A DNA stretch of 45,912 nt, taken from IMG/VR virus record IMGVR_UViG_3300045988_103468, positions 1 to 45,912 of that record, one strand, 5' to 3'. This DNA comes from a virus. A program made the translations under genes and the position numbers. Of this stretch, positions 3,003 to 42,353 are shown one piece after another (the stretch's first letter is position 1; every line of letters starts with the position of its first letter). A model generated the notes under the pieces. That model saw only the letters and a program-made list of their open reading frames with translations. It searched no databases and was not told the origin of the DNA.

Positions 3003-3509
3003 TTACTTTGTTTTTGCAGGTGGTTCAGACTTGACAAGGCTCCTCAGTTCTTCCGCCGTCGGTATCTGGCTCAGCCGTTCGTTCATGTCAGCGAGCATCT
3101 TCCGCAACTCCCTGTTTTCGGCTTCGAGCTCCTTTGAACGCGCAGCTTCGGGGTCGAGCTGCATCAGGATCTCGTCGTAGACCTTCAGGTTGGCTTTGTG
3201 CCTGTCGAATGATTCCACGATGTCACGGCTTGCCTGCTGTGCCTCCATGATGGTCGGCTTCAACACTTCACGTGTCGTCGCTACGGTAAGGCCGTCTTTC
3301 GAAACGATGTCCGCTTGCATAGGGACGCCCCAGGGCTCGTTGCCCTCTATCGAGATGTTGATGAATTGCGGCATCGGCGAGAATTGCCCGGGCTTTTGGG
3401 GCGGGAAATACGGTGCCGATACATCTTTTACGTTGGCTGTATAAAACTTAGGCTGTTCCCTGTTGTCGAAAACGTAGACTAAGGAGCCTTTTCTCAAGTT
3501 CTGAAACAT
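3003..3509 (-). CDS. Hypothetical protein with a C-terminal coiled-coil-like segment
   Basis: 168-aa ORF with protein-like composition. The C-terminus (KELEAENRELRKMLADMNERL) is heptad-like. Confidence 0.65.
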   Translation of the reverse strand: MFQNLRKGSLVYVFDNREQPKFYTANVKDVSAPYFPPQKPGQFSPMPQFINISIEGNEPWGVPMQADIVSKDGLTVATTREVLKPTIMEAQQASRDIVESFDRHKANLKVYDEILMQLDPEAARSKELEAENRELRKMLADMNERLSQIPTAEELRSLVKSEPPAKTK

Positions 3510-3534
3510 CTTGGTTAATGATTTGTGAAAGATA

Positions 3535-3557
3535 GGGGAGAAGGAGCCCTCCTCCCC
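3535..3557 (-). terminator. Possible terminator hairpin
   Basis: GGGGAG...CTCCCC hairpin downstream of 3584-3925. Only a weak T-tract (TATCTTTC) follows on the minus strand. Confidence 0.35.
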
Positions 3558-3583
3558 GTCTTTCGGTTAATTGTTTTTTTAAT

Positions 3584-3925
3584 TCAGACGGCACCGGTCA
3601 TCAATTGCAAAGTATCGGTCTGCTTGTCATACCATATCTGGTATACCCCTGACCCCGGAATATCCGATACTGTAACATTTGCTCCGTTGTACGTCGTCAG
3701 ATTCTTATTTTGCCCGTTGGTTTCAAACAGCACGGGAAGTGTTCCCGTTGTGCCGGCAGGGATTTCCTGTACCAACTCAACCAGCACGAGTCCCCGGTAC
3801 CACGAATTTGCAAATGCGTGGTTGGGAAAGGAAAACACAACCCCTGTGGTCTCCACTGTCACGCCTGTAGTTTTTAGTACCGGTATGCCTCTGCGGTTAA
3901 CATACTGAAATGGGAATACTGCCAT
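3584..3925 (-). CDS. Hypothetical protein (113 aa)
   Basis: ORF 3584-4072 trimmed to Met50 (MAVFPFQYVN...). The longer form would run through the divergent HNH gene start region. Confidence 0.55.
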   Translation of the reverse strand: MAVFPFQYVNRRGIPVLKTTGVTVETTGVVFSFPNHAFANSWYRGLVLVELVQEIPAGTTGTLPVLFETNGQNKNLTTYNGANVTVSDIPGSGVYQIWYDKQTDTLQLMTGAV

Positions 3926-4052
3926 ATTTTTGTATTTTAAGTTATTATAACTAATTTTACATCGGGATAGGTTGGAGTCATGACCAACTGATAAGGGCTT
4001 GCCAAACGTCCTTCCCTCTTTTTCTCGTTTGGCACCACTAAATTGTTTGGCA

Positions 4053-4670
4053 ATGACAAATCGGGAATTCATAGAGAGTGTTGCTCTCGAAGGAGAAGAA
4101 TGGCGTATTATTGATGGTACGCTCGGCTATTTCGCGGTATCTGATTATGGTAGGGTTTCATCGCTATCCCATCGCGTGAGCGGAGGTAATAACAATAGTT
4201 GGACGACTAAACCTCGCATATTAACTCCTCGCCCAAATCGGGGAGGATATTTGAGAGTTAGACTTACATCCCTACACGGAGTAGATAAGACTGAATTAGT
4301 CCATAGGCTTGTTGCTAAAGCGTTCATCCCCAATCCTAATAACTATGCATATGTAGACCATATAGATGGGAACCGGACGAACAATGTGGCACGTAATCTT
4401 CGTTGGTGTACTCGTTCAATGAACATGCTTAACCCTGTCACAAGAGAGTGTGCAGCAAAAGCACGAAGAATACCCAACAAGAAAAACAGAAAGCCAATTG
4501 TCCAGATTAAAAATGGAATATTGGTTGCAAAATATAAAACAGCATCCGAAGCCCATCAATTACACGGATTTCACATCGGAGGAATATATGAATGCATTCG
4601 AAAACCAACTCGCACATTGAAAGGATTTCATTGGCGCTGGCTTTCGGATTGGGAAGCCTCTTATCAGTAA
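4053..4670 (+). CDS. HNH homing endonuclease (NUMOD4-like N-terminus plus HNH)
   Basis: EWRIIDG..YFAVSDYGRVSS, then GGYLRVRL..., then LVHRLVAKAFIPNP..YVDHIDGNRTNNVARNLRW. Start set to ATG 4053 (MTNREF). It is the only plus-strand gene inside the minus-strand left arm. Confidence 0.85.
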   Translation: MTNREFIESVALEGEEWRIIDGTLGYFAVSDYGRVSSLSHRVSGGNNNSWTTKPRILTPRPNRGGYLRVRLTSLHGVDKTELVHRLVAKAFIPNPNNYAYVDHIDGNRTNNVARNLRWCTRSMNMLNPVTRECAAKARRIPNKKNRKPIVQIKNGILVAKYKTASEAHQLHGFHIGGIYECIRKPTRTLKGFHWRWLSDWEASYQ

Positions 4671-28031: not shown

Positions 28032-28460
28032 TCACAGGTTTTCCGTTAATTCATCTTGCTTTTTTTCGACTGCACCCATTCTTCGAGAGAGGACTTCACC
28101 ATCACCCTTCTGAGTTAATCGTTCAATGATTGCAGTTTGGTTCGCCACTACTGCAGTCACTTTTGCGAGCTGCTCTTTCAGGGTGTTGATGTAGTCCTGT
28201 GTAAGTGGATCCATCTCCTGAATTTTTGTTGAGTTAGTAATAGGGTTATCTTTTGGGGTTTCCCCGGTTTGGTTTTGAATGATATATCTTGATATTATAT
28301 CGCCATATTTAACCTTTAGCCTTTCTATATGCTCCTCTTTTATTTCTCGTTTCCCATTCATCATTGCTGATATCTGCGATTGAGCTACACCTATAACTTC
28401 GCTTAAATCTTGTTGTTTAAGCTGCATGTCAAAGGCAAACTTCTTAATATCTAATAACAT
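28032..28460 (-). CDS. CI-like repressor (XRE-family HTH)
   Basis: ORF 28032-28916 trimmed to MLLDIKKFAFDMQLKQQDLSEVIGVAQSQISAMMNGKREI (XRE HTH), with a C-terminal coiled-coil-like part. Divergent from the early operon. Confidence 0.8.
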   Translation of the reverse strand: MLLDIKKFAFDMQLKQQDLSEVIGVAQSQISAMMNGKREIKEEHIERLKVKYGDIISRYIIQNQTGETPKDNPITNSTKIQEMDPLTQDYINTLKEQLAKVTAVVANQTAIIERLTQKGDGEVLSRRMGAVEKKQDELTENL

Positions 28461-28510
28461 ATGGAAATTGACAATATTATAATAATTATTTATACAAAAT
28501 ATCTTTATAA

Positions 28511-28529
28511 ATCTTGATAATATCAAGAT
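28511..28529. promoter_or_regulatory. Operator: perfect palindrome ATCTTGATA-A-TATCAAGAT
   Basis: 9-bp arms, flanked by direct AAAATATCT repeats (28496-28504 and 28530-28538). Immediately upstream of the early -7 box. Confidence 0.6.
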
Positions 28530-28537
28530 AAAATATC

Positions 28538-28545
28538 TATATTTG
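28538..28545 (+). promoter_or_regulatory. Early rightward promoter -7 box (TATATTTG)
   Basis: Perfect TAnnTTTG, about 115 nt upstream of ATG 28662. Confidence 0.5.
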
Positions 28546-28661
28546 CAATGTGAAACCCACAAAGCTGATACAAATATACGATTTAAGATGAAAAACGCAA
28601 GCGTGGGGACTGAATATTTGACGATTGTACCTTTTTGAAGGTAATAAAAACGGACAACGCG

Positions 28662-28904
28662 ATGAAAGCAACTTACGACAAATCGAAGATCATGAAGAAC
28701 GCCTGGTACCTTAAAAAGGTACAGCCGGGCAAGAGTTTGGGGGATTGCCTGCGCAAGGCTTGGCGCAACGAGAAGTTGGCGATGCTGACCGCGAAGATCG
28801 AGAACCGCCCGACGGAGCAGCCGAAGGCCACGGAGTACCGCCCCGAACTGCTGAAAGTGCCGACAGGTTTCTATGGTGTCCGAGGAATGTACTATGGTGA
28901 CTAA
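28662..28904 (+). CDS. First early-operon protein (Cro/antirepressor position), function unknown
   Basis: ORF 28635-28904 begins at TTG. The first ATG is at 28662 (MKATYDKSKIMKNAWYLKK...). Confidence 0.55.
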   Translation: MKATYDKSKIMKNAWYLKKVQPGKSLGDCLRKAWRNEKLAMLTAKIENRPTEQPKATEYRPELLKVPTGFYGVRGMYYGD

Positions 28905-28917
28905 AGCACGATGCAAT

Positions 28918-29302: not shown

Positions 29303-29837
29303 CGTAGAGTTTTTTAACTCACCCGAAGGAGAGGTGCAGATTCGCGACGAAAAGGGTGTCCGCACATATATGGAAGAAGAAAAGGAGCTCACCGACGCAT
29401 TATTCTCGGTAATTGAGATTGACTACCCGCAGGCATTCAAGGCGCTGTCGGAGATTTACAATAAGAGCAAGGTGAATGCCCCCTATTTCAAATACAGGTG
29501 CGCACACCGGTTTATCCGCTGCAACTTCGGGATGTACGACAAAGTGCCCGATGTGGACGAATTAGGCCGGTTCAACTTCGAGAATGTTGCTTGTCCGCTG
29601 GTGGGGGAGTGCAAATACTATAAAGTAATCTGTAACCCAGAGTTTAATACTAACCTGACAATGCGGGAGAAAGAGATTGTCCGCCTCTATAAAGAGGGGT
29701 ATAAGACTGAAAAGATTGCCGAAATACTATCACTTTCCCAGTTGACGGTCGAAACACACAAACGAAACGCTATGCGTCGCACAGGGTCGACAACGCTTGC
29801 CGAACTCGTGATATGGGCTAACAACCACGGACTTTAA
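29286..29837 (+). CDS. LuxR/GerE-type HTH transcriptional regulator
   Basis: Start at MQRLNNVEFF. C-terminal LTMREKEIVRLYKEGYKTEKIAEILSLSQLTVETHKRNAMRRTG. N-terminal domain is Cys-containing. Confidence 0.75.
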   Translation: MQRLNNVEFFNSPEGEVQIRDEKGVRTYMEEEKELTDALFSVIEIDYPQAFKALSEIYNKSKVNAPYFKYRCAHRFIRCNFGMYDKVPDVDELGRFNFENVACPLVGECKYYKVICNPEFNTNLTMREKEIVRLYKEGYKTEKIAEILSLSQLTVETHKRNAMRRTGSTTLAELVIWANNHGL

Positions 29838-30237
29838 ACACAAAATATAACCAACCATGAAAACAATTTATCTCTGGGTTTCAGGCAAAGGCTGGACACC
29901 CTTTCAGTACAATGAACTTTCTGAATTAGCCGCCGAATTTGAGGCGCGCAATATCAAACTGGGCGACGGGTGCGAACTGGGCGACGGGTGCAAACTGGGC
30001 GACGGGTGCGAACTGGGCGACGGGTGCGATGTTCCGAAATCGCTATTTATCAGCGCATCTCGTCATACAGTATCCTATTGGGGTGAGGATGTTATTCAAA
30101 TAGGCTGCAAACGCTACACCATTTCCGAGTGGCAGAAGCATTTCCGAAAAATTGGCGAGGCCGAAGGCTATAGTCCCGAGCAGATGGAGGAATACAAAGG
30201 GTATATAGACCTGATCGCCACCATGCACAAGACGTGG
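29834..30237 (+). repeat. 404-bp direct repeat, copy A
   Basis: Aligned by hand to 41938-42341 (offset 12104) with 8 mismatches. Starts at the stop codon of the upstream gene. Confidence 0.9.
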
Positions 30238-30264
30238 AAGGTTGAGAAGGTAAAGGACAAATAA
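29857..30264 (+). CDS. Hypothetical protein with four LGDGC(E/K/D) hexapeptide repeats, paralogue A
   Basis: 135 aa, near-identical to 41961-42353 except for the last ~10 residues. Confidence 0.75.
   Translation: MKTIYLWVSGKGWTPFQYNELSELAAEFEARNIKLGDGCELGDGCKLGDGCELGDGCDVPKSLFISASRHTVSYWGEDVIQIGCKRYTISEWQKHFRKIGEAEGYSPEQMEEYKGYIDLIATMHKTWKVEKVKDK
29959..30030 (+). repeat. 4 x 18-bp tandem repeat (CTGGGCGACGGGTGCGAA-like)
   Basis: Encodes LGDGCE LGDGCK LGDGCE LGDGCD. The same array occurs at 42063-42134. Confidence 0.9.
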
Positions 30265-31429: not shown

Positions 31430-31501
31430 TGAGCTATGGTGTAATGGTTAACACACCGCCCTTTGGAGGCGGTACTCCCGGTTCGAATCCGGGTAGCTCA
31501 A
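31430..31501 (+). tRNA. tRNA-Gln (anticodon UUG)
   Basis: Hand-folded 72-nt cloverleaf. Acceptor TGAGCTA/TAGCTCA (U1-A72). D-arm GTGT-AATGGTTA-ACAC. Anticodon arm CCGCC-CTTTGGA-GGCGG. T-arm CCCGG-TTCGAAT-CCGGG. CCA is not encoded. Confidence 0.9.
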
Positions 31502-31694
31502 CGGGGTTCTAACCCTAATGTTGTGAGTTTGATCGGGCGCTTGGGCGTCTGTCACAACGGAAGCTGACAGAGGGTATATCCCTCGACAATCCGAGGCTGC
31601 GTGAAGGAAGTAGCAAGGCCGAGGCGGGCTAAGCCCACGAAACGGGAGATAAAGAACGCAAATCGGCGGCGCGAAGCACAGTAACGCCGCCACC

Positions 31695-31725
31695 GCGGGG
31701 GCAGTCAGAAGCCCCCGCTTCTTTT
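31695..31725 (+). terminator. Intrinsic terminator closing the tRNA-Gln unit
   Basis: GCGGGGGC-AGTCAGAA-GCCCCCGC followed by TTCTTTT. Confidence 0.8.
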
Positions 31726-31910: not shown

Positions 31911-33131
31911 ATGAATTACGGATTACCTTATAAGGGTTCTAAGAATAGTATTGCGAAATGGGTTATTTCGAATCTTCCCGCGTCGCATACGTTCGTGGAT
32001 TTGTTCGCCGGAGGATGTGCGGTAACTCACGCTGCCATATTGTCTGGTAAATTCGGACGTTTCATTGCAAACGATATTACGGAATATCCCCAAGTCTTCC
32101 GTGATGCCATCGATGGGAAATACCGGAATGAATGTCGATGGATCAGTCGGGAGGATTTCCTCCGTCTCAAAGATGACGACCCCTACGTGCGTCTTTGCTG
32201 GAGCTTTGGGAACGATATGAATACATATATGTATGCTCCGGAGGTTGAGCGGTTCAAAAAACACATGCACGCGATATTTTCCGCGGGAACGCCCACGAGC
32301 GCGCGGTTGGCATGGAAAGGATTTGTCCGGGAATTTGCAAAAGTCCGTGATAAAATAGGAGAGCTGACGCAAAAGGTGCTGAAGTTGTGCGCAGCGTGCG
32401 ACGTGGCACCTCAATACAATGCGGACGGCACATTGAATACAAAGGCGATACATACAGATGTTTTTCGGGTTAAATCAGCGTATTTGCGAAAATATTTACA
32501 GAACGCCCTGAAATTATCCGGTCTTACGCAAAAAGATGTCGACCGACGCCTTGGGAATTATATGGGTAGGCATTATTTTAGCGAATCTCAATGGATGTTG
32601 CCATCCTCTGAACAATACGAGAAGTTGCAAGAAATTTTACCGGCGTTAACTATTCCGTGGGCGCCCTTAAACGAAAGTCTGCAAAGTCTGGAAAGACTGG
32701 AAAGTCTGGAAAGTCTGGAAAGTCTGCAAAGTCTGCAAAGTCTGGAAAGACTGGAAAGACTGCAAAGTCTGGAAAGACTGGAAAGTCTGCAAAGTCTGGA
32801 AAGACTGAAACTGTCCCGAAAGGATTACAGCGATGTTGCTATACCGCCGGGCGCGACGGTATACTGCGACCCGCCGTATGCTAACACGTCGGGGTATATC
32901 GACGATTTCGACCATGAACGATTTTATAGATGGCTGCGCAGCATGGAATTCCCGGTGTTCGTTTCGGAATATTCCATGCCGGACGACTTTATATGCTTTG
33001 CGAGTATTGACAAAGCATGCACCTATTCATCATCAAAAACGATAAAACGCGTAGAAAAGATGTTCGTACACGAGCGGTGGGCGGATGCTGTGAGGCGTCC
33101 GGATGATAATGTTCAGGGGCGGCTGTTCTAA
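31911..33131 (+). CDS. dam: Dam-like (D12-class) N6-adenine DNA methyltransferase with an inserted tripeptide-repeat segment
   Basis: N-terminal LPYKGSKNSIAKW and FVDLFAGGCAV (motif I). C-terminal VYCDPPYANTSGY (motif IV). 406 aa, longer than typical Dam because of an HTH-like segment plus 15 tripeptide repeats between the motifs. Confidence 0.8.
   Translation: MNYGLPYKGSKNSIAKWVISNLPASHTFVDLFAGGCAVTHAAILSGKFGRFIANDITEYPQVFRDAIDGKYRNECRWISREDFLRLKDDDPYVRLCWSFGNDMNTYMYAPEVERFKKHMHAIFSAGTPTSARLAWKGFVREFAKVRDKIGELTQKVLKLCAACDVAPQYNADGTLNTKAIHTDVFRVKSAYLRKYLQNALKLSGLTQKDVDRRLGNYMGRHYFSESQWMLPSSEQYEKLQEILPALTIPWAPLNESLQSLERLESLESLESLQSLQSLERLERLQSLERLESLQSLERLKLSRKDYSDVAIPPGATVYCDPPYANTSGYIDDFDHERFYRWLRSMEFPVFVSEYSMPDDFICFASIDKACTYSSSKTIKRVEKMFVHERWADAVRRPDDNVQGRLF
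32676..32810 (+). repeat. 15 x 9-bp in-frame tandem repeat (AGTCTGGAA / AGACTGGAA / AGTCTGCAA variants)
   Basis: Counted unit by unit. Encodes SLQ SLE RLE SLE SLE SLQ SLQ SLE RLE RLQ SLE RLE SLQ SLE RLK. Confidence 0.95.
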
Positions 33132-33218: not shown

Positions 33219-33722
33219 ATGGATGACATTACCCGCGTCTGCCGCAAATGCGGGCAGGAAAAGCCGTTGGAAGAGTTTGTAAAAGATAAGACCCGCGAAT
33301 TAGGTTATAGTTATACTTGCAAACATTGCAGACGAGAACACGCCTGTAAGTATCGTGCTGATAACCACGAAAAGGTACTGGAACGCACCCGCAAGTGGCG
33401 AGTTGATAATCCCGAAAAGGTGCGGGAGTATGACCGCAAGTATCGTGCTGATAACCACGAAAAAATATTGGAATATGGCCGTAAGCATTATGCTGAGAAT
33501 TCCGAAAGGTACAATAAATATTCCCGCAAGTGGCAGGCCGCTAATCCCGAAAAGGTGCGGGAAACACGCCGATATCTGCGCGAGATATTGTCTGACGGTT
33601 ATTTAAGGCGTCAACTAAAACGACGCAACCTCCCCGTAACCCCAGAAACAATCGACTACAAACGTATTCAACTAAAGTTATACCGAGAAATCAAAAAACA
33701 ACAAAACGATGAAAGAGATTAA
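33219..33722 (+). CDS. Zinc-ribbon protein with internal KYRADNHEK / NPEKVRE repeats
   Basis: N-terminal CRKCG..17..CKHC. Two near-identical nucleotide segments (GTATCGTGCTGATAACCACGAAAA and CCCGCAAGTGGC..TAATCCCGAAAAGGTGCGGGA) each occur twice. Confidence 0.65.
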   Translation: MDDITRVCRKCGQEKPLEEFVKDKTRELGYSYTCKHCRREHACKYRADNHEKVLERTRKWRVDNPEKVREYDRKYRADNHEKILEYGRKHYAENSERYNKYSRKWQAANPEKVRETRRYLREILSDGYLRRQLKRRNLPVTPETIDYKRIQLKLYREIKKQQNDERD

Positions 33723-37148: not shown

Positions 37149-37516
37149 CAGATTTAGAACGGGAATACGACCGTGTTTTCAGCCTTTTTATACGTCATCG
37201 AGACTGTCCGGGTGGGCGAGGTTTCTGCATCACCTGCGGGGCGCCCATAGCGCCTGAAACATGCGATTGCGGGCACTATATAGACCGAGCTCACAGGTCT
37301 ACGAGATGGGACGAAAGGAATTGTCACGCCCAATGCAGGGTTTGCAACAGGCATTCTGCTGGTCGCATTGGAGTTTACCGCCAAGTACTGATCCGAAAAT
37401 ACGGACTTGCAGTCGTTGAAGAACTTGAACGCAGTAAGCACAGCGTATTCAAAATGTCGAGGTCGGAGATGTCCGATAAGATCAATTATTACAAACGATT
37501 AATTCGCAATGTGTAA
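37145..37516 (+). CDS. ninG: NinG/Rap-like recombination endonuclease
   Basis: CITCG..CDCGHYIDRAHRSTRWDERNCHAQCRVCN pattern, typical of lambda NinG. Confidence 0.7.
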   Translation: MTDLEREYDRVFSLFIRHRDCPGGRGFCITCGAPIAPETCDCGHYIDRAHRSTRWDERNCHAQCRVCNRHSAGRIGVYRQVLIRKYGLAVVEELERSKHSVFKMSRSEMSDKINYYKRLIRNV

Positions 37517-38396
37517 CACTTCAAATAACAGTTGGATTAAGATGTACCGCAGCTTCCTCGATTGGGAGTGGTATCCGGATACGAACTGCGTACGGCTGGC
37601 ATTGCATTTCATTTTGAAGGCAAATTACCGGGCCAAGAAGTGGAAGGGTTTAATCATTGACCGCGGACAATTGGTAACCAGCAGAGGACAGCTGTCCGAA
37701 GAGACAGGACTTTCGGAGATGCAAATACGCACCGCAATAGACAAGCTGGATAATTGCGGGTTTATAACCAAGTCGGGAACACGCAAATATACTATCATAA
37801 CTGTCTGTAATTATGACTTATACCAACAAGCACAGGATGGTTTTGATAATGGTTGTCAACCAACAGATAACCAACAAACAACCAGCAAACAACCAACAGA
37901 TAACCAACAAATAACCACAACTAAAGAATATAAGAAAGAAAGAATAGAAGAATATACACACACACTGGTAGATACTAAAAAGGGGGTTGTAGGGGGAAAA
38001 GAGACGGAGGCCGTGGAACTCATAGAATGGATCGCCACGAACGCGCCATGTATTGCTTCGATGCCCGAGCCCATAACTGCGGGACAGGCCGTGTGGCTGT
38101 TGCAGGACTACAACGTGAAAGATATTCGCCGATTGATAGCCACCATGCAAAGCAAGCAGGCATACCTCAAACACACGAATGCCTATACGGCTTTTGTCAG
38201 TTACGCAAACCTCGACAAGGCGCTTAAAGATGGCCGGCCGCCAAGTGTGCAATCTGGGAAAAAGTATTATACACGGGATGAAGCAATGGCCTATATTCGA
38301 TTCCGTCGTTTGGGCGGCTCTCTTAAAGATAATTTCACTCTTGAGCGTGTGAATGGGCAGCATTTGTGGTGCTTGAAAGCCCCAGTTAACCTTTAA
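37509..38396 (+). CDS. Putative replication initiator / replisome organiser (winged-helix N-terminal domain)
   Basis: WIKMYRSFLDWEWYPDTN...RGQLVTSRGQLSEETGLSEMQIRTAIDKL, a central repeat/low-complexity linker and a C-terminal domain. Position follows the recombination genes. Confidence 0.6.
   Translation: MCNTSNNSWIKMYRSFLDWEWYPDTNCVRLALHFILKANYRAKKWKGLIIDRGQLVTSRGQLSEETGLSEMQIRTAIDKLDNCGFITKSGTRKYTIITVCNYDLYQQAQDGFDNGCQPTDNQQTTSKQPTDNQQITTTKEYKKERIEEYTHTLVDTKKGVVGGKETEAVELIEWIATNAPCIASMPEPITAGQAVWLLQDYNVKDIRRLIATMQSKQAYLKHTNAYTAFVSYANLDKALKDGRPPSVQSGKKYYTRDEAMAYIRFRRLGGSLKDNFTLERVNGQHLWCLKAPVNL
37857..37922 (+). repeat. 2 x 33-bp tandem repeat inside the initiator gene, followed by an AT/purine-rich tract (37921-37966)
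   Basis: CAACCAACAGATAACCAACAA begins at 37857 and again at 37890. Encodes QPTDNQQTTSK QPTDNQQITT. Confidence 0.85.
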
Positions 38397-38407
38397 CGAA
38401 CGATAAA

Positions 38408-38470
38408 ATGAAAGTCATAGTCACCTTTTCGGGTGGGAAAGACAGCTGCATGAGTTATTACGGATTATGA
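38408..38470 (+). pseudogene. 20-codon in-frame internal-deletion ghost of the PAPS-reductase-like gene
   Basis: MKVIVTFSGGKDS|CMSYYGL* joins the first 13 codons and the last ~7 codons of 40569-41465. The flanking 65 nt (38383-38447) match 40544-40608 with 3 mismatches. Confidence 0.7.
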
Positions 38471-39627
38471 CTATGAAATTACGAGTATTCACAAGTTTTT
38501 CCGGCTATGACAGTCAGTTGATGGCTCTTCGGGACATCGGCGCGGACTACGAGTGCGTGGGCTGGTCGGAGATTGACAAATGGGCGATTAAGGCTCACGA
38601 TGCAGTATTCCCGGAGCTGGCAGACCGAAATTACGGCGACATCACGAAAATCGATTGGGACGTCGTTTCGGACTTCGATCTGTTCACCTACTCGTTTCCG
38701 TGTACCGACATCAGCAGCGCCGGAGAGCAGAAGGGTTTCGAAGAAGATTCGGGCACCCGTTCATCCCTGTTATGGGAATGCCGTCGGCCGATCGCGGCCA
38801 AGCATCCTAAATTCCTGCTGATGGAGAATGTGAAAGCCCTCATATCGGAGAAATACCGTCCGCTGTTTCTCAAATGGGAATCGTGGCTTCGCTCGCTCGG
38901 TTATGTCAATTATACGGAAATACTCAACGCCAAAGATTACGGCGTCCCGCAGAACCGGGAACGTGTATTTATGCTCTCCATTCTTAACGGCTGCTGGTAT
39001 GAATTCCCGCATCCGGTCAGGCTGGAAAAGCGGCTGAAAGACGTATTGGAATTGGAGGTAGACGAGAAGTATTATCTGAGCGAAACAATGCTGAAATTTC
39101 TGCAAAAGCAGACAGGCCGAAATGAACCGTTTAAGCCTGCAAAAATAGCCGATCTTAATGGTGTTGCCATGACGATAAATGCAAGAGCACACAAAATAAG
39201 CAAACAGGATAATTATGTGATGCAGATCGGCGCAACGAAGCAAACGGACTGGAACCGACAGCAATACCGGGTATACGATCCGACTGGCACCAGCCCGACG
39301 ATAACGACGAAATCGGGCAGCGGACTTGAACCGAAAATCCTGATGCGGGGACGCGGCTTCAACAAAGGCGGCGAAGCGGATCTTCCCGGAACGATTACAG
39401 GCAGCGCGTGGGAACAAAACAATCTGCTGGACTATGCCGGCTGCATCCGCCGCCTTACGCCCCGCGAGTGTTTGCGGCTGATGGATGTTTCGGATAGTGA
39501 CATTAACAAGATACAAGCTGCGGGAATCAGCGATACACAGCAGTACAAGCTGGCCGGAAACAGTATCGTAAAGGCCCCGATGATGGGGATATTTGAAAAC
39601 ATGTTGAGATACGGATTATGCGAATAG
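38467..39627 (+). CDS. DNA (cytosine-5)-methyltransferase
   Basis: Motif I FSGYDS, motif IV FPCTDIS, motif VI LMENVKAL, motif VIII QNRERVF, motif X AGNSI. Confidence 0.9.
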   Translation: MTMKLRVFTSFSGYDSQLMALRDIGADYECVGWSEIDKWAIKAHDAVFPELADRNYGDITKIDWDVVSDFDLFTYSFPCTDISSAGEQKGFEEDSGTRSSLLWECRRPIAAKHPKFLLMENVKALISEKYRPLFLKWESWLRSLGYVNYTEILNAKDYGVPQNRERVFMLSILNGCWYEFPHPVRLEKRLKDVLELEVDEKYYLSETMLKFLQKQTGRNEPFKPAKIADLNGVAMTINARAHKISKQDNYVMQIGATKQTDWNRQQYRVYDPTGTSPTITTKSGSGLEPKILMRGRGFNKGGEADLPGTITGSAWEQNNLLDYAGCIRRLTPRECLRLMDVSDSDINKIQAAGISDTQQYKLAGNSIVKAPMMGIFENMLRYGLCE

Positions 39628-40496
39628 GTTTGGTTGACATAGACGGTCACCACTTCCCGAACCTCGCGCTGATGAAACTGTCAACTTGGCATAAAGCGCA
39701 GGGTGATTCGGTAGAGTTCGCCGACCCGATGTTCGGTCGCTACGACCGGGTTTATATGTCGAAGGTTTTCACTTTCACGCCCGATTGTCCGGACATCTAC
39801 CATTGCGAGGTGATCCGGGGCGGGACGGGATTCCGGGACTATACGACGGTATTGCCCGGTGAGATCGAGCATATTTGCCCGGATTATTCGCTGTACGGAG
39901 TAAATGAAGCCTACGGATTCCTTACCCGCGGCTGTCCGAACCGCTGCCCGTGGTGCATTGTTCCGCACAAAGAAGGAGCCATCCGGCCCGCGTCTCCGCT
40001 ACGGGAGTTTATCGGCGACAAGCGCCGGGCTGTATTGCTCGATAACAACGTGCTGGCATCGGACTTTGGGCTGGAACAGATCGAGGAAATAATCCGCATG
40101 GGCATCGCGGTTGATTTCAACCAAGGGCTGGATGCCCGGAGGGCGTGCGATGATCCCTACATCCTCGACCTGCTGGCGCGGGTGAAGTGGATTCAGCATA
40201 TTCGGTTCGCCTGCGACCGGATGTCCCAACTGGAGGCGGTTACAAAGTGTGTCAAAGAGTTGGGACGCCGAGGTATCAAGCCATATCGCATTTTCGTCTA
40301 CTGCCTGATACAAGATGTCGATGAATCATTGGAGCGGATCAACGCCCTGCGTAAATTGAAAGTCTGCCCGTTTGCCCAGCCTTACCGGGATTTCGATAAT
40401 AACATTGAGCCGACGAAGGAGCAAAAACGGCTGGCGCGTTGGTGTAACCATAAGGCTATTTTCAAGAGTGTTGAATTCAAAAACTACAAATTATGA
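39618..40496 (+). CDS. Radical SAM enzyme, substrate unknown
   Basis: TRGCPNRCPWC is CX3CX2C. 292 aa. The ATG is embedded in the 16-nt junction and overlaps the MTase end by 10 nt. Confidence 0.75.
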   Translation: MRIGLVDIDGHHFPNLALMKLSTWHKAQGDSVEFADPMFGRYDRVYMSKVFTFTPDCPDIYHCEVIRGGTGFRDYTTVLPGEIEHICPDYSLYGVNEAYGFLTRGCPNRCPWCIVPHKEGAIRPASPLREFIGDKRRAVLLDNNVLASDFGLEQIEEIIRMGIAVDFNQGLDARRACDDPYILDLLARVKWIQHIRFACDRMSQLEAVTKCVKELGRRGIKPYRIFVYCLIQDVDESLERINALRKLKVCPFAQPYRDFDNNIEPTKEQKRLARWCNHKAIFKSVEFKNYKL

Positions 40497-40568
40497 CAGA
40501 CCAAGTAACGAGCATCGAGCAGTCGAAGAAGCCCCAGTCCCCTCAGTTAACCTTTAACGAACGATAAA

Positions 40569-41465
40569 ATGAAAGTCATAATCACCTTTTCGGGTGGCAA
40601 GGACAGCCTTGCATCGCTTCTTTGGACGCGCGAACATATCACCAAGAACTTTACGACCGTGTTTTGCGACACGGGGTGGGAGCATCCGTTGACCTACGAG
40701 TACATCAACCGGATCGCGGATAAGCTCCACTTGGATTTGGTGACGCTCAAGTCGAAGAAATACGACGGGATGGTCGATCTTGCCCGGCAGAAAAAGCGTT
40801 GGCCCTCGACGCGGGCGCGGTTCTGCACGCAGGAATTGAAGACGAAGCCCTGTATCGACTACGTGCTGGACGAGGTGCAGGACAATATGCTGATGATACA
40901 GGGCATCCGGGCAGCAGAATCGGCCAGCCGGGCGAAGATGTCGGCGCAATGTACGTACTTCAAGTACTATTTCGAGCCTTACGGTTACGACAAAAACGGC
41001 AAGCCGAAAAAGCACACTTATCGGGGCAAGGAGGTACGGGCATTCCGGGAGAAGTTCGCCGACGATTTGCTTCGGCCCGTGTTTGACTGGTCGGCGCAGC
41101 AGGTAATCGACTACATCCTCGACGCAGGATTGGAGCCGAACCCGCTCTACAAAATGGGCTACAAACGTGTCGGCTGCTGGCCGTGCGTGATGGCGAATCA
41201 GCGGGACATCCTCAATATTGCCCAGCAGGCCCCGGAGCGGATAGACTACATTGCCAAGATTGAGCAGGAATTACAATGCGGCGACCGGTTGCGTTCAGAA
41301 TTTTTCGGCCCGGACAAAATACCTGCCCACGCAATCACCAGCGGAGAGAAATATCCGACGATTCATGATGTCGTGCGCTACGTCCAATGGCAGAATGCGA
41401 CGGGCAGCCTATTCGACGACGATACAGCGACCAGTTGCATGAGCTTTTACGGATTATGCGAATGA
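40569..41465 (+). CDS. PP-loop ATPase of the PAPS-reductase-like family
   Basis: N-terminal MKVIITFSGGKDS (SGGxDS PP-loop) and later RVGCWPC. 298 aa. Confidence 0.8.
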   Translation: MKVIITFSGGKDSLASLLWTREHITKNFTTVFCDTGWEHPLTYEYINRIADKLHLDLVTLKSKKYDGMVDLARQKKRWPSTRARFCTQELKTKPCIDYVLDEVQDNMLMIQGIRAAESASRAKMSAQCTYFKYYFEPYGYDKNGKPKKHTYRGKEVRAFREKFADDLLRPVFDWSAQQVIDYILDAGLEPNPLYKMGYKRVGCWPCVMANQRDILNIAQQAPERIDYIAKIEQELQCGDRLRSEFFGPDKIPAHAITSGEKYPTIHDVVRYVQWQNATGSLFDDDTATSCMSFYGLCE

Positions 41466-41941
41466 ATATGAAAACGGACAAACTGATCTTGGATGCCTGC
41501 TGCGGCCCACGTATGATGTGGTTCGACAAGCGGAACCCGCAGGCTGTGTTCATGGATATTCGGGACGAAGAGCATATACTCTGCGATGGCCGGAGTTTAG
41601 AGGTGCATCCGGATGTAATCGGAGACTTTCGACGTATACCGTTCGAGGATGCAACATTTCGGCTTGTTGTGTTCGATCCTCCACACCTTGTCCGTCTTGG
41701 CGACAATAGCTACATGGCGCACAAATACGGCAGATTGTTCCCCACATGGGAAACCGATCTAAAGCAGGGGTTCGACGAATGTATGCGAGTATTGAAACCG
41801 GAAGGGGTTTTAATCTTCAAGTGGTGCGAAGAGCAAATACCCGCAAGCCGAATCATCGAAATTTTCGGAGTGGAGCCGCTGTTCGGCCACAAGAGCGGCA
41901 AGAACTCCAAAACGCAGTGGATGTGTTTTATGAAAAATTAA
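41456..41941 (+). CDS. SAM-dependent methyltransferase, probably DNA N6-adenine/N4-cytosine type (DPPH motif)
   Basis: LILDACCGPRMMW (motif I-like) and LVVFDPPHL (motif IV-like). The start is either ATG 41456 or ATG 41462 (ATGA overlap). Confidence 0.65.
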   Translation: MRMNMKTDKLILDACCGPRMMWFDKRNPQAVFMDIRDEEHILCDGRSLEVHPDVIGDFRRIPFEDATFRLVVFDPPHLVRLGDNSYMAHKYGRLFPTWETDLKQGFDECMRVLKPEGVLIFKWCEEQIPASRIIEIFGVEPLFGHKSGKNSKTQWMCFMKN

Positions 41942-42341
41942 ACACAAAAGATAACCAACCATGAAAACACTTTATCTCTGGGTTTCAGACAAAGGCTGGA
42001 CACCCTTTCAGTACAATGAACTTTCTGAATTATCCCCCGAATTTGAGGCGCGCAATATCAAACTGGGCGACGGGTGCGAACTGGGCGACGGGTGCAAACT
42101 GGGCGACGGGTGCGAACTGGGCGACGGGTGCGATGTTCCGAAATCGCTATTTATCAGCGCATCTCGTCATACAGTATCCTATTGGGGTGAGGATGTTATT
42201 CAAATAGGCTGCAAACGCTACACCATTTCCGAGTGGCAGAAGCATTTCCGAAAAATTGGCGAGGCCGAAGGCTATAGTCCCGAGCAGATGGAGGAATACA
42301 AAGGGTATATAGACCTGATCGCTGCAATGCACAAGACGTGG
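41938..42341 (+). repeat. 404-bp direct repeat, copy B
   Basis: See 29834-30237. Confidence 0.9.
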
Positions 42342-42353
42342 GCGTTACACTAA
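41961..42353 (+). CDS. Hypothetical protein with LGDGC hexapeptide repeats, paralogue B
   Basis: 130 aa, near-identical to 29857-30264. Confidence 0.75.
   Translation: MKTLYLWVSDKGWTPFQYNELSELSPEFEARNIKLGDGCELGDGCKLGDGCELGDGCDVPKSLFISASRHTVSYWGEDVIQIGCKRYTISEWQKHFRKIGEAEGYSPEQMEEYKGYIDLIAAMHKTWALH

Follow-up and report, generated by a model that had tools for sequence, protein, structure and literature searches.

A DNA methyltransferase gene of a temperate Alistipes phage contains an in-frame array of 9-bp tandem units, and the length of this tract changes faster than the flanking gene gains single substitutions. The phage genome was analyzed as a stretch of 45,912 nucleotides, hereafter called the window (IMG/VR record IMGVR_UViG_3300045988_103468, positions 1 to 45,912). 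The gene, located at 31911–33131 on the + strand, encodes a predicted protein of 406 amino acids that we assigned to the D12-class (alpha-order) N6-adenine DNA methyltransferases as a divergent, non-canonical relative of Dam. The array, with leucine at every third residue, is by sequence comparison an ancient conserved hallmark of a very large phage methyltransferase subfamily. In the reading that we favor, and that we consider moderately probable, the array is a structural arm conserved at the protein level, whose length would drift by slippage or unequal recombination while the enzyme stays intact.

Analysis of the window with Tandem Repeats Finder gave a repeat of period 9 at 32673–32807 (15.0 copies, 88% matches, score 200), which also scored at a higher-order period of 27 (5 copies, 92% matches, score 242). 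In codon phase, the 15 units occupied 32676–32810 on the + strand, exactly the position and the count given by the original prediction, which had been made from the letters of the window. Positions 32676–32801 consisted of 14 exact matches to AGWCTGSAA back to back, followed by a last unit, AGACTGAAA; the whole window held 15 matches to this motif, against 1.1 ± 1.0 in 100 shuffled sequences (largest number, 4). The tract translation was SLQSLERLESLESLESLQSLQSLERLERLQSLERLESLQSLERLK, which corresponds to residues 256–300 of the protein. The unit varied at only two nucleotide positions, namely position 3 (T or A, giving Ser or Arg) and position 7 (G, C, or once A, giving Glu, Gln, or Lys), and there was no synonymous variation within the window tract. 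The unit set of (S/R)L(E/Q) proposed in the original prediction was right for the variants that it listed, and had to be extended by AGACTGCAA (RLQ) and the last unit (RLK), so that the hypervariable minisatellite reads (S/R)L(E/Q/K) fifteen times. Two open reading frames (ORFs) that overlap the tract in other frames (KSGKTGK..., 32657–32884, + strand; FQSFQT..., 32667–32915, − strand) were rejected as by-products of a stop-free repeat.

Copy number of the tract among close relatives

To describe variation of the tract, we used the best 120 database relatives of the protein, which were 87–100% identical to it and 391–436 amino acids long. Their lengths differed from 406 amino acids mostly by multiples of three; the exceptions, with 398, 401, and 407 amino acids, had one extra residue in the C-terminal flank. 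The multiple-of-three differences mapped to the tract, which had 10–25 units in these close proteins and was present as 97 distinct alleles among the 120. Five 9-mers accounted for 749 of the 767 units in the close clade. In a group of 23 proteins, the 361 non-tract residues were 100% identical, yet all 23 tracts were distinct and ranged from 10 to 18 units; other groups with identical non-tract residues ranged from 12 to 21 and from 15 to 25 units.

The comparison of coding sequences from 46 colinear loci gave the same picture. Among 53 pairs with zero differences across 1083 nt of flanking coding sequence, the tract differed in 47 and its length in 34, and among pairs with one or two flank differences the tract differed in 108 of 112. 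The contig L012 showed 99.5–99.9% identity with the window over approximately 9 kb; in a 6.7-kb block spanning the gene, the sole gap was one of 27 bp, and the protein encoded by this contig (P0078) had exactly three tract units fewer than that of the window. The 70 tract-bearing IMG/VR loci, on viral contigs of approximately 4–62 kb, carried 5–27 units, with only 11, 13, and 22 missing from this range, and all three of these counts occurred among the close proteins. Alleles of 10, 11, 12, 14, 15, and 16 units were each found on 12–180 independent contigs. The reading frame was kept in the top-listed close relatives and in all distant tract-bearing relatives examined. Repeat number was thus not invariant, as the original prediction had anticipated: among near-identical relatives it varied in 9-bp steps, with 5–27 units.

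Distribution of the array in the methyltransferase family

We searched 1.84 billion cluster representatives exhaustively with HMMER, which yielded 3962 relatives at E ≤ 1e-3, of which 728 reached E ≤ 1e-30. For the family survey, we took the best 149 of the 3962 representatives, each from a different 50%-identity cluster. At least four xLx units were present 17–30 amino acids upstream of DPPY in 113 of the 149. The dominant hydrophobic period, computed over the 45 residues ending 17 amino acids before DPPY, was 2.9–3.1 in 114 of 144 representatives and 3.4–3.8 in only two, and a period of about 3 was kept even in arrays without sequence repetition, such as VEHLERLGRVQHLERLGRVKKLGEMQHLEALGRVQHLE (P0233) and LEGFESLDGLQSIGTLQNIEGLQRLEGLQNLERLQ (P0219). 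Loci of Fibrobacter, Erysipelotrichaceae, Anaerovoracaceae, Oscillospiraceae, Bacteroidaceae, Lachnospiraceae, and Treponema, which showed 34–48% identity, carried 7–17 units at the equivalent position.

In cultured or named phages, the nearest members were Lacticaseibacillus phage R24.1 (OP869849, CDS 3482–4462), with 18 units of (Q/R/N)L(Q/E) before the DPPY region, and gp31 of podophage Lau218 (NC_024329), with 13 degenerate units that are non-repetitive at the sequence level. The N-terminal domains of these two proteins were 31–35% identical to that of the window protein, from which they differ in having other middle regions and no helix-turn-helix (HTH)-like module. Neither protein is annotated with a repeat, and that of R24.1 is annotated as a hypothetical protein. 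The tract was not private to the prophage of the window, since the array was present in about three quarters of the 149 distant representatives, in several phyla, and in two named phages. In the literature on phage and prophage methyltransferases and on tandem repeats, we found no description of a leucine-triplet array. When the tract served as the only query, composition filtering reduced the database matches to 8 short fragments, which said nothing about other protein families. Five sequences from short ENA contigs (P0273–P0277) had ORFs of 67–95 amino acids with SLESLERLESLESLE arrays and no recognizable methyltransferase flanks; these could represent fragments or spurious ORFs, or show the array in a second context.

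The codons used in the tract differed among lineages: Ser was encoded by AGT or AGC, Arg by AGA, AGG, or CGC, Leu by CTG, CTC, or TTG, Glu by GAA or GAG, and Gln by CAA or CAG, with each lineage internally homogeneous. Encoding of one peptide alphabet with different synonymous codons indicated that selection acts on the peptide, and it ruled out a DNA-level function, for example as a set of binding or methylation sites. The homogeneity of the DNA within each lineage pointed to repeated slippage or unequal recombination, that is, concerted evolution. In the window, the AGTCT of the Ser units is the reverse complement of the AGACT of the Arg units, and 32670–32815 was predicted to fold as stacked imperfect hairpins (−40.2 kcal/mol for the tract, z of −2.7 against shuffles). 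Folding z values by locus were −2.8 (L003), −2.0 (L004), −1.9 (L001), +1.9 (L002), and 0.06 (L008). This hairpin results from the AGN-CTN codon choice, and it was rejected as a conserved RNA or DNA function because it was specific to lineages with AGY/AGR and CTG codons and absent in others; it may promote slippage in the lineages that have it.

Placement, predicted structure, and possible role of the array

The window protein exceeded the cut-off of Pfam PF02086 (MethyltransfD12; 55.6 bits against 22, E 8e-15) and matched phrog_56, DNA methyltransferase (E 1.7e-32). It did not reach the cut-off of TIGR00571, the GATC-specific Dam family (34.9 bits against 114.85), which matched only residues 5–57. 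The motifs YKGSK (residues 7–11), DLFAGG (residues 30–35), and DPPY (residues 320–323) were found in the translation in the alpha-class order around an insert, in agreement with the class and the motifs read in the original prediction. In a Foldseek comparison, the AlphaFold2 model of the protein (mean predicted local distance difference test score, pLDDT, of 80.3) was closest to Escherichia coli Dam, T4 Dam, and Mcbe1 (E 4e-5 to 2e-4). By predicted fold and motifs, therefore, the protein is assigned to the D12-class alpha-order methyltransferases and not to canonical Dam. Its likeness to T4 Dam and E. coli Dam (PDB ID: 1q0s, 1yf3, 2g1p, 4rts) lies in the fold and the motif order (E 4e-5, TM-score about 0.47–0.5 on target). 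In contrast to these enzymes, it has approximately 150 extra residues between the two halves, made up of long helices, an HTH-like module, and the array, and these parts matched no Dam sequence in the alignments made.

The conserved N-terminal part comprised residues 1–125. Within it, the putative S-adenosylmethionine (AdoMet)-binding region, from YKGSK through motif I (31929–32015, + strand), aligned with T4 Dam residues 5–93. In an alignment of 49 relatives (A1), which was used for invariance calls and for the AlphaFold2 model, Gly9, Lys11, Gly34, and Gly35 were invariant. A second conserved block, CWSFGNDMNTYMY (residues 96–108; 32196–32234, + strand), had invariant Ser98, Phe99, and Tyr106, and from its CWSFGN...Y pattern we infer that it is the counterpart of the Dam-family recognition hairpin. 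It was followed by long helices at residues 128–162 and 177–203 and by the optional HTH-like module at residues ~190–245, LRKYLQNALKLSGLTQKDVDRRLGNYMGRHYFSESQWMLPSSEQYEKLQEIL (32478–32645, + strand), which was present in the long relatives of A1 and not in the short ones. The H-Y-F..S-Q-W signature of this module was found in 36 of 145 representatives; phrog_6952, DNA methyltransferase, matched residues 204–243, and the module had no Pfam match. Directly 3' of the tract (32805–32879, + strand) were the strand KLSR (residues 299–302), the strand TVYC (residues 316–319), and motif IV DPPY (32868–32879), both strands having a pLDDT of 96 in the model and Tyr318, Asp320, Pro322, and Tyr323 being invariant in A1. 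The HMMER alignment to T4 Dam covered residues 5–89 and 294–331, the latter corresponding to T4 Dam residues 145–182, which include DPPY. The ratio of nonsynonymous to synonymous substitution rates (dN/dS) outside the tract was 0.12–0.27 against relatives with a dS of 0.25–1.16. This low dN/dS shows purifying selection on the gene, which, with its invariant catalytic and AdoMet motifs, looks functional. The tract is therefore not where the original prediction had put it, in the target-recognition region: it makes up the C-terminal edge of the segment inserted between motifs I and IV, right before the strand that precedes the DPPY strand, and the putative Dam-type recognition block is about 150 residues upstream.

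In the array, position 2 of the unit was hydrophobic, and positions 1 and 3 were polar, mostly S/R and E/Q. The net charge per unit was −0.03 ± 0.24 in 82 independent tracts. Glu followed by Arg was enriched at i+1 (odds ratio 2.8, p 3e-8) and at i+4 (odds ratio 1.7, p 0.007) and not at i+7, with p-values that are optimistic as units within one tract are not independent. This charge pattern fits a helix with intrahelical salt bridges. In the close clade, the three units adjoining the strand were nearly invariant (0.14, 0.28, and 0.92 bits), against approximately 2 bits farther N-terminal. The AlphaFold2 model of the 15-unit window protein had a helix at residues 250–273, a break at 274–282, and a helix at 283–293 leading into the strand at 299–302, and the model of a 25-unit protein had a single 78-residue helix (250–327) leading into the strand at 329–332. 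A helical hairpin, suggested by the break in the 15-unit model, was rejected because it was not reproduced in the 25-unit model. The helical-looking spacer of the original prediction was thus present in both models, with low confidence, and the hydrophobic period of 3.0 agreed with its description as heptad-free. At most, the tract can be described as a probable helical continuation of the helix that runs into the strand ahead of the DPPY strand.

These observations are best accommodated, in our opinion, by the length-tolerant arm. The charge-balanced array would extend N-terminally the helix that enters the strand before the motif IV strand, and selection on the protein would keep position 2 hydrophobic and positions 1 and 3 polar. 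Gain or loss of 9- or 27-bp units, by slipped-strand mispairing or unequal recombination, would change the arm in three-residue steps and leave the frame and the periodic pattern unbroken, because every unit is structurally equivalent. The arm could then drift between approximately 5 and 27 units with the enzyme intact and probably with little effect on target specificity, and the same turnover would homogenize the DNA repeat within each lineage. The phage-encoded Erf may contribute to this turnover. The arm itself may serve in oligomerization, partner binding, or spacing. A diversity-generating retroelement was rejected as a source of the variation, which was unit-based and not adenine-specific; no reverse transcriptase was found among the ORFs scanned, in a window that was not searched exhaustively for one.

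Several observations weigh against this reading. Unit counts in the close clade had a peak at 14–15, which could mean stabilizing selection on length, so that length may matter. The tract had a pLDDT of only 46–64, and the geometries of the 15- and 25-unit models disagreed. A period of 3.0 is unlike that of an amphipathic or coiled-coil alpha-helix (3.5–3.6), and on a straight helix the leucines would wind around the surface as an exposed spiral. The actual structure may be another one, or the arm may pack inside an oligomer or against other helices. Gly, Asn, and occasionally Pro occurred at positions 1 and 3 in some lineages. Finally, most sequences came from short-read assemblies, 4 of the 74 IMG/VR viral contigs (L069, L077, L083, and L084) ended inside the tract, and steps were often multiples of 27 bp, so that individual copy numbers may be wrong. 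The contig ends suggest assembly breakage from the complexity of the repeat, from mixed copy numbers within samples, or from both.

A different role would be that of a length ruler, in which a rigid helical spacer sets the distance or orientation of a DNA-recognition module relative to the catalytic pocket and a change of units alters the recognized sequence or a bipartite spacing. There is a real precedent in the HsdS subunits of EcoR124I and EcoR124II, where the copy number of an in-frame tandem repeat in a helical spacer alters specificity without a frameshift (PMC7383803). The window tract is likewise an in-frame, copy-variable repeat in a segment, here predicted to be helical, of a restriction-modification protein; the HTH-like module is directly upstream of it, the continuous helix of the 25-unit model would keep this module at a long distance from the catalytic domain, and the 14–15-unit peak hints that length may matter. 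The likeness goes no further. The TAEL unit of EcoR124I/II has four residues, is present in two or three copies, and forms a coiled coil between two recognition domains, one unit changing N6 to N7. In contrast, the window family has a three-residue unit with a period of 3.0, 5–27 copies, and a single-chain Dam-like enzyme, in which only one Dam-like recognition block was conserved in A1, and this block is within the N-terminal 125 residues. Tract length did not differ between the 36 representatives that have the HTH-like module and the 109 that lack it. Counts of 5–27 showed no phase preference, and their range of approximately 100 Å, if helical, is far above the adjustment of one base pair; a step of three residues (4.5 Å, −60 degrees) would also mismatch DNA geometry, unlike the four-residue TAEL unit. 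The AlphaFold2 geometry is unreliable for the tract. We therefore consider the ruler rather improbable and favor the length-tolerant arm, because the tract lies outside the region of the putative recognition hairpin, is independent of the HTH-like module, and appears to tolerate all counts.

Alternatively, the rapid length change may itself be adaptive, the tract being a selected contingency locus that tunes enzyme level, stability, oligomeric state, or timing, or that escapes a host factor binding or sensing the arm. The tract outpaced point substitution in the pairs with identical flanks, many lineages that use different codons have independently kept or regained a repetitive DNA sequence, and the phage has its own Erf recombinase. 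However, non-repetitive arrays exist (Lau218, P0233, P0190, and P0219), so that variability is not required for function, and high turnover is the neutral expectation for any tolerated in-frame minisatellite; selection for variability is thus doubtful. The mod and hsd genes of phasevarions also have, inside a methyltransferase gene, a repeat tract whose copy number varies among strains through slippage, but their units are not divisible by three and switch expression ON or OFF by frameshift, which is impossible for the 9-bp unit because it never shifts the frame. Surveys of hsd genes with repeats left out, on purpose, units divisible by three (PMC7383803), so that in-frame tracts of this kind have gone uncatalogued. 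In its boldest form, and with little probability in our estimate, the array would be a protein-length rheostat, a widespread in-frame contingency locus in gut and rumen phages that varies target spacing, specificity, oligomeric state, or activity, and the period of 3.0 would represent a structural element or self-association mode undescribed for DNA methyltransferases.

An invariant tract collapsed or expanded by short-read de Bruijn assembly would be favored by its nature as a low-complexity repeat of 135–240 bp, by the many differences in multiples of 27 bp, and by the four contigs ending inside it, but a wholesale artefact of this kind is very unlikely, given identical alleles on many independent contigs (P0025 on 180, P0060 on 144, P0020 on 82, P0080 on 35, and P0110 on 23), equal-length alleles that differ in unit order, tracts of differing length not only in distant lineages but also in a cultured phage whose genome is complete, and a window tract that a 150-nt read would exceed in length.

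The methyltransferases of phages are commonly viewed as fixed anti-restriction devices. Here, a very large phage D12-class subfamily shares a conserved array that is also hypervariable in length, an unexpected combination. Should tract length influence activity or specificity, epigenetic diversity in the gut virome would have a route that is both new and common. Without such an effect, the array would be a clean case, found in nature, of a periodic protein element in which three-residue insertions and deletions are tolerated without limit, and the tract could be used as a very fast marker for typing strains of Alistipes phages.

Phage genome and neighboring genes

The window is the genome of a temperate phage of Alistipes. 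It contains an integrase gene at 182–1552, genes for the tape-measure protein, major head protein, portal, and large terminase on the − strand, and an early region with a repressor-like gene at 28032–28916. This region also has genes for a regulator, tRNA-Gln, the methyltransferase, Erf, and an endonuclease VII/HNH-like protein with a zinc ribbon, among others. Near-identical proteins were found in the sources as DNA adenine methylases of Alistipes onderdonkii, A. putredinis, A. indistinctus, and A. shahii; their location on contigs of up to 834 kb indicated integrated prophages. No recognizable type II restriction enzyme was present among the neighbors examined, namely a 54-amino-acid ORF without a PHROG match, the zinc-ribbon nuclease-like gene at 33219–33722, and Erf.

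The gene at 33219–33722 (+ strand), directly 3' of the methyltransferase gene, encodes an N-terminal CxxC...CxxC zinc ribbon and had PHROG matches to endonuclease VII, HNH, and Lar-like proteins. It has a repeat of its own, with four diverged 45-bp (15-amino-acid) tandem units at 33333–33552 (e.g., KYRADNHEK and NPEKVRE). On the other side, the tRNA-Gln (anticodon TTG) lies at 31430–31502, approximately 400 bp upstream of the methyltransferase gene, and a 113-bp stretch just 3' of it (31584–31696) was missing from L012.

A second segment absent from L012, of 2.1 kb (38447–40539), was flanked by 67-nt direct repeats (38380–38446 and 40541–40607) and appears, from this arrangement, to have been gained or lost through recombination between them. 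It holds a predicted C5-cytosine DNA methyltransferase gene at 38467–39627 (PF00145, E 5e-56) and an ORF at 39618–40496 with a weak radical-SAM match. Other repeats were found elsewhere in the window. A 300-nt direct duplicate, 98% identical and 12.1 kb apart, was present at 29834–30133 and 41938–42237, and both copies hold an 18-bp tandem repeat, AACTGGGCGACGGGTGCG, in 4.1 copies (29957–30029 and 42061–42133). The duplicates lie within paralogous small ORFs (29857–30264 and 41961–42353) with weak hexapeptide-repeat Pfam matches and with matches to phrog_32789 and phrog_5353. An 11-bp tandem repeat, AACCAACAAAT, in 5.5 copies with 85% matches, was located at 37858–37917 in an ORF without a Pfam match (37509–38396), and length changes in it would shift the frame of that ORF because the unit is not divisible by three.

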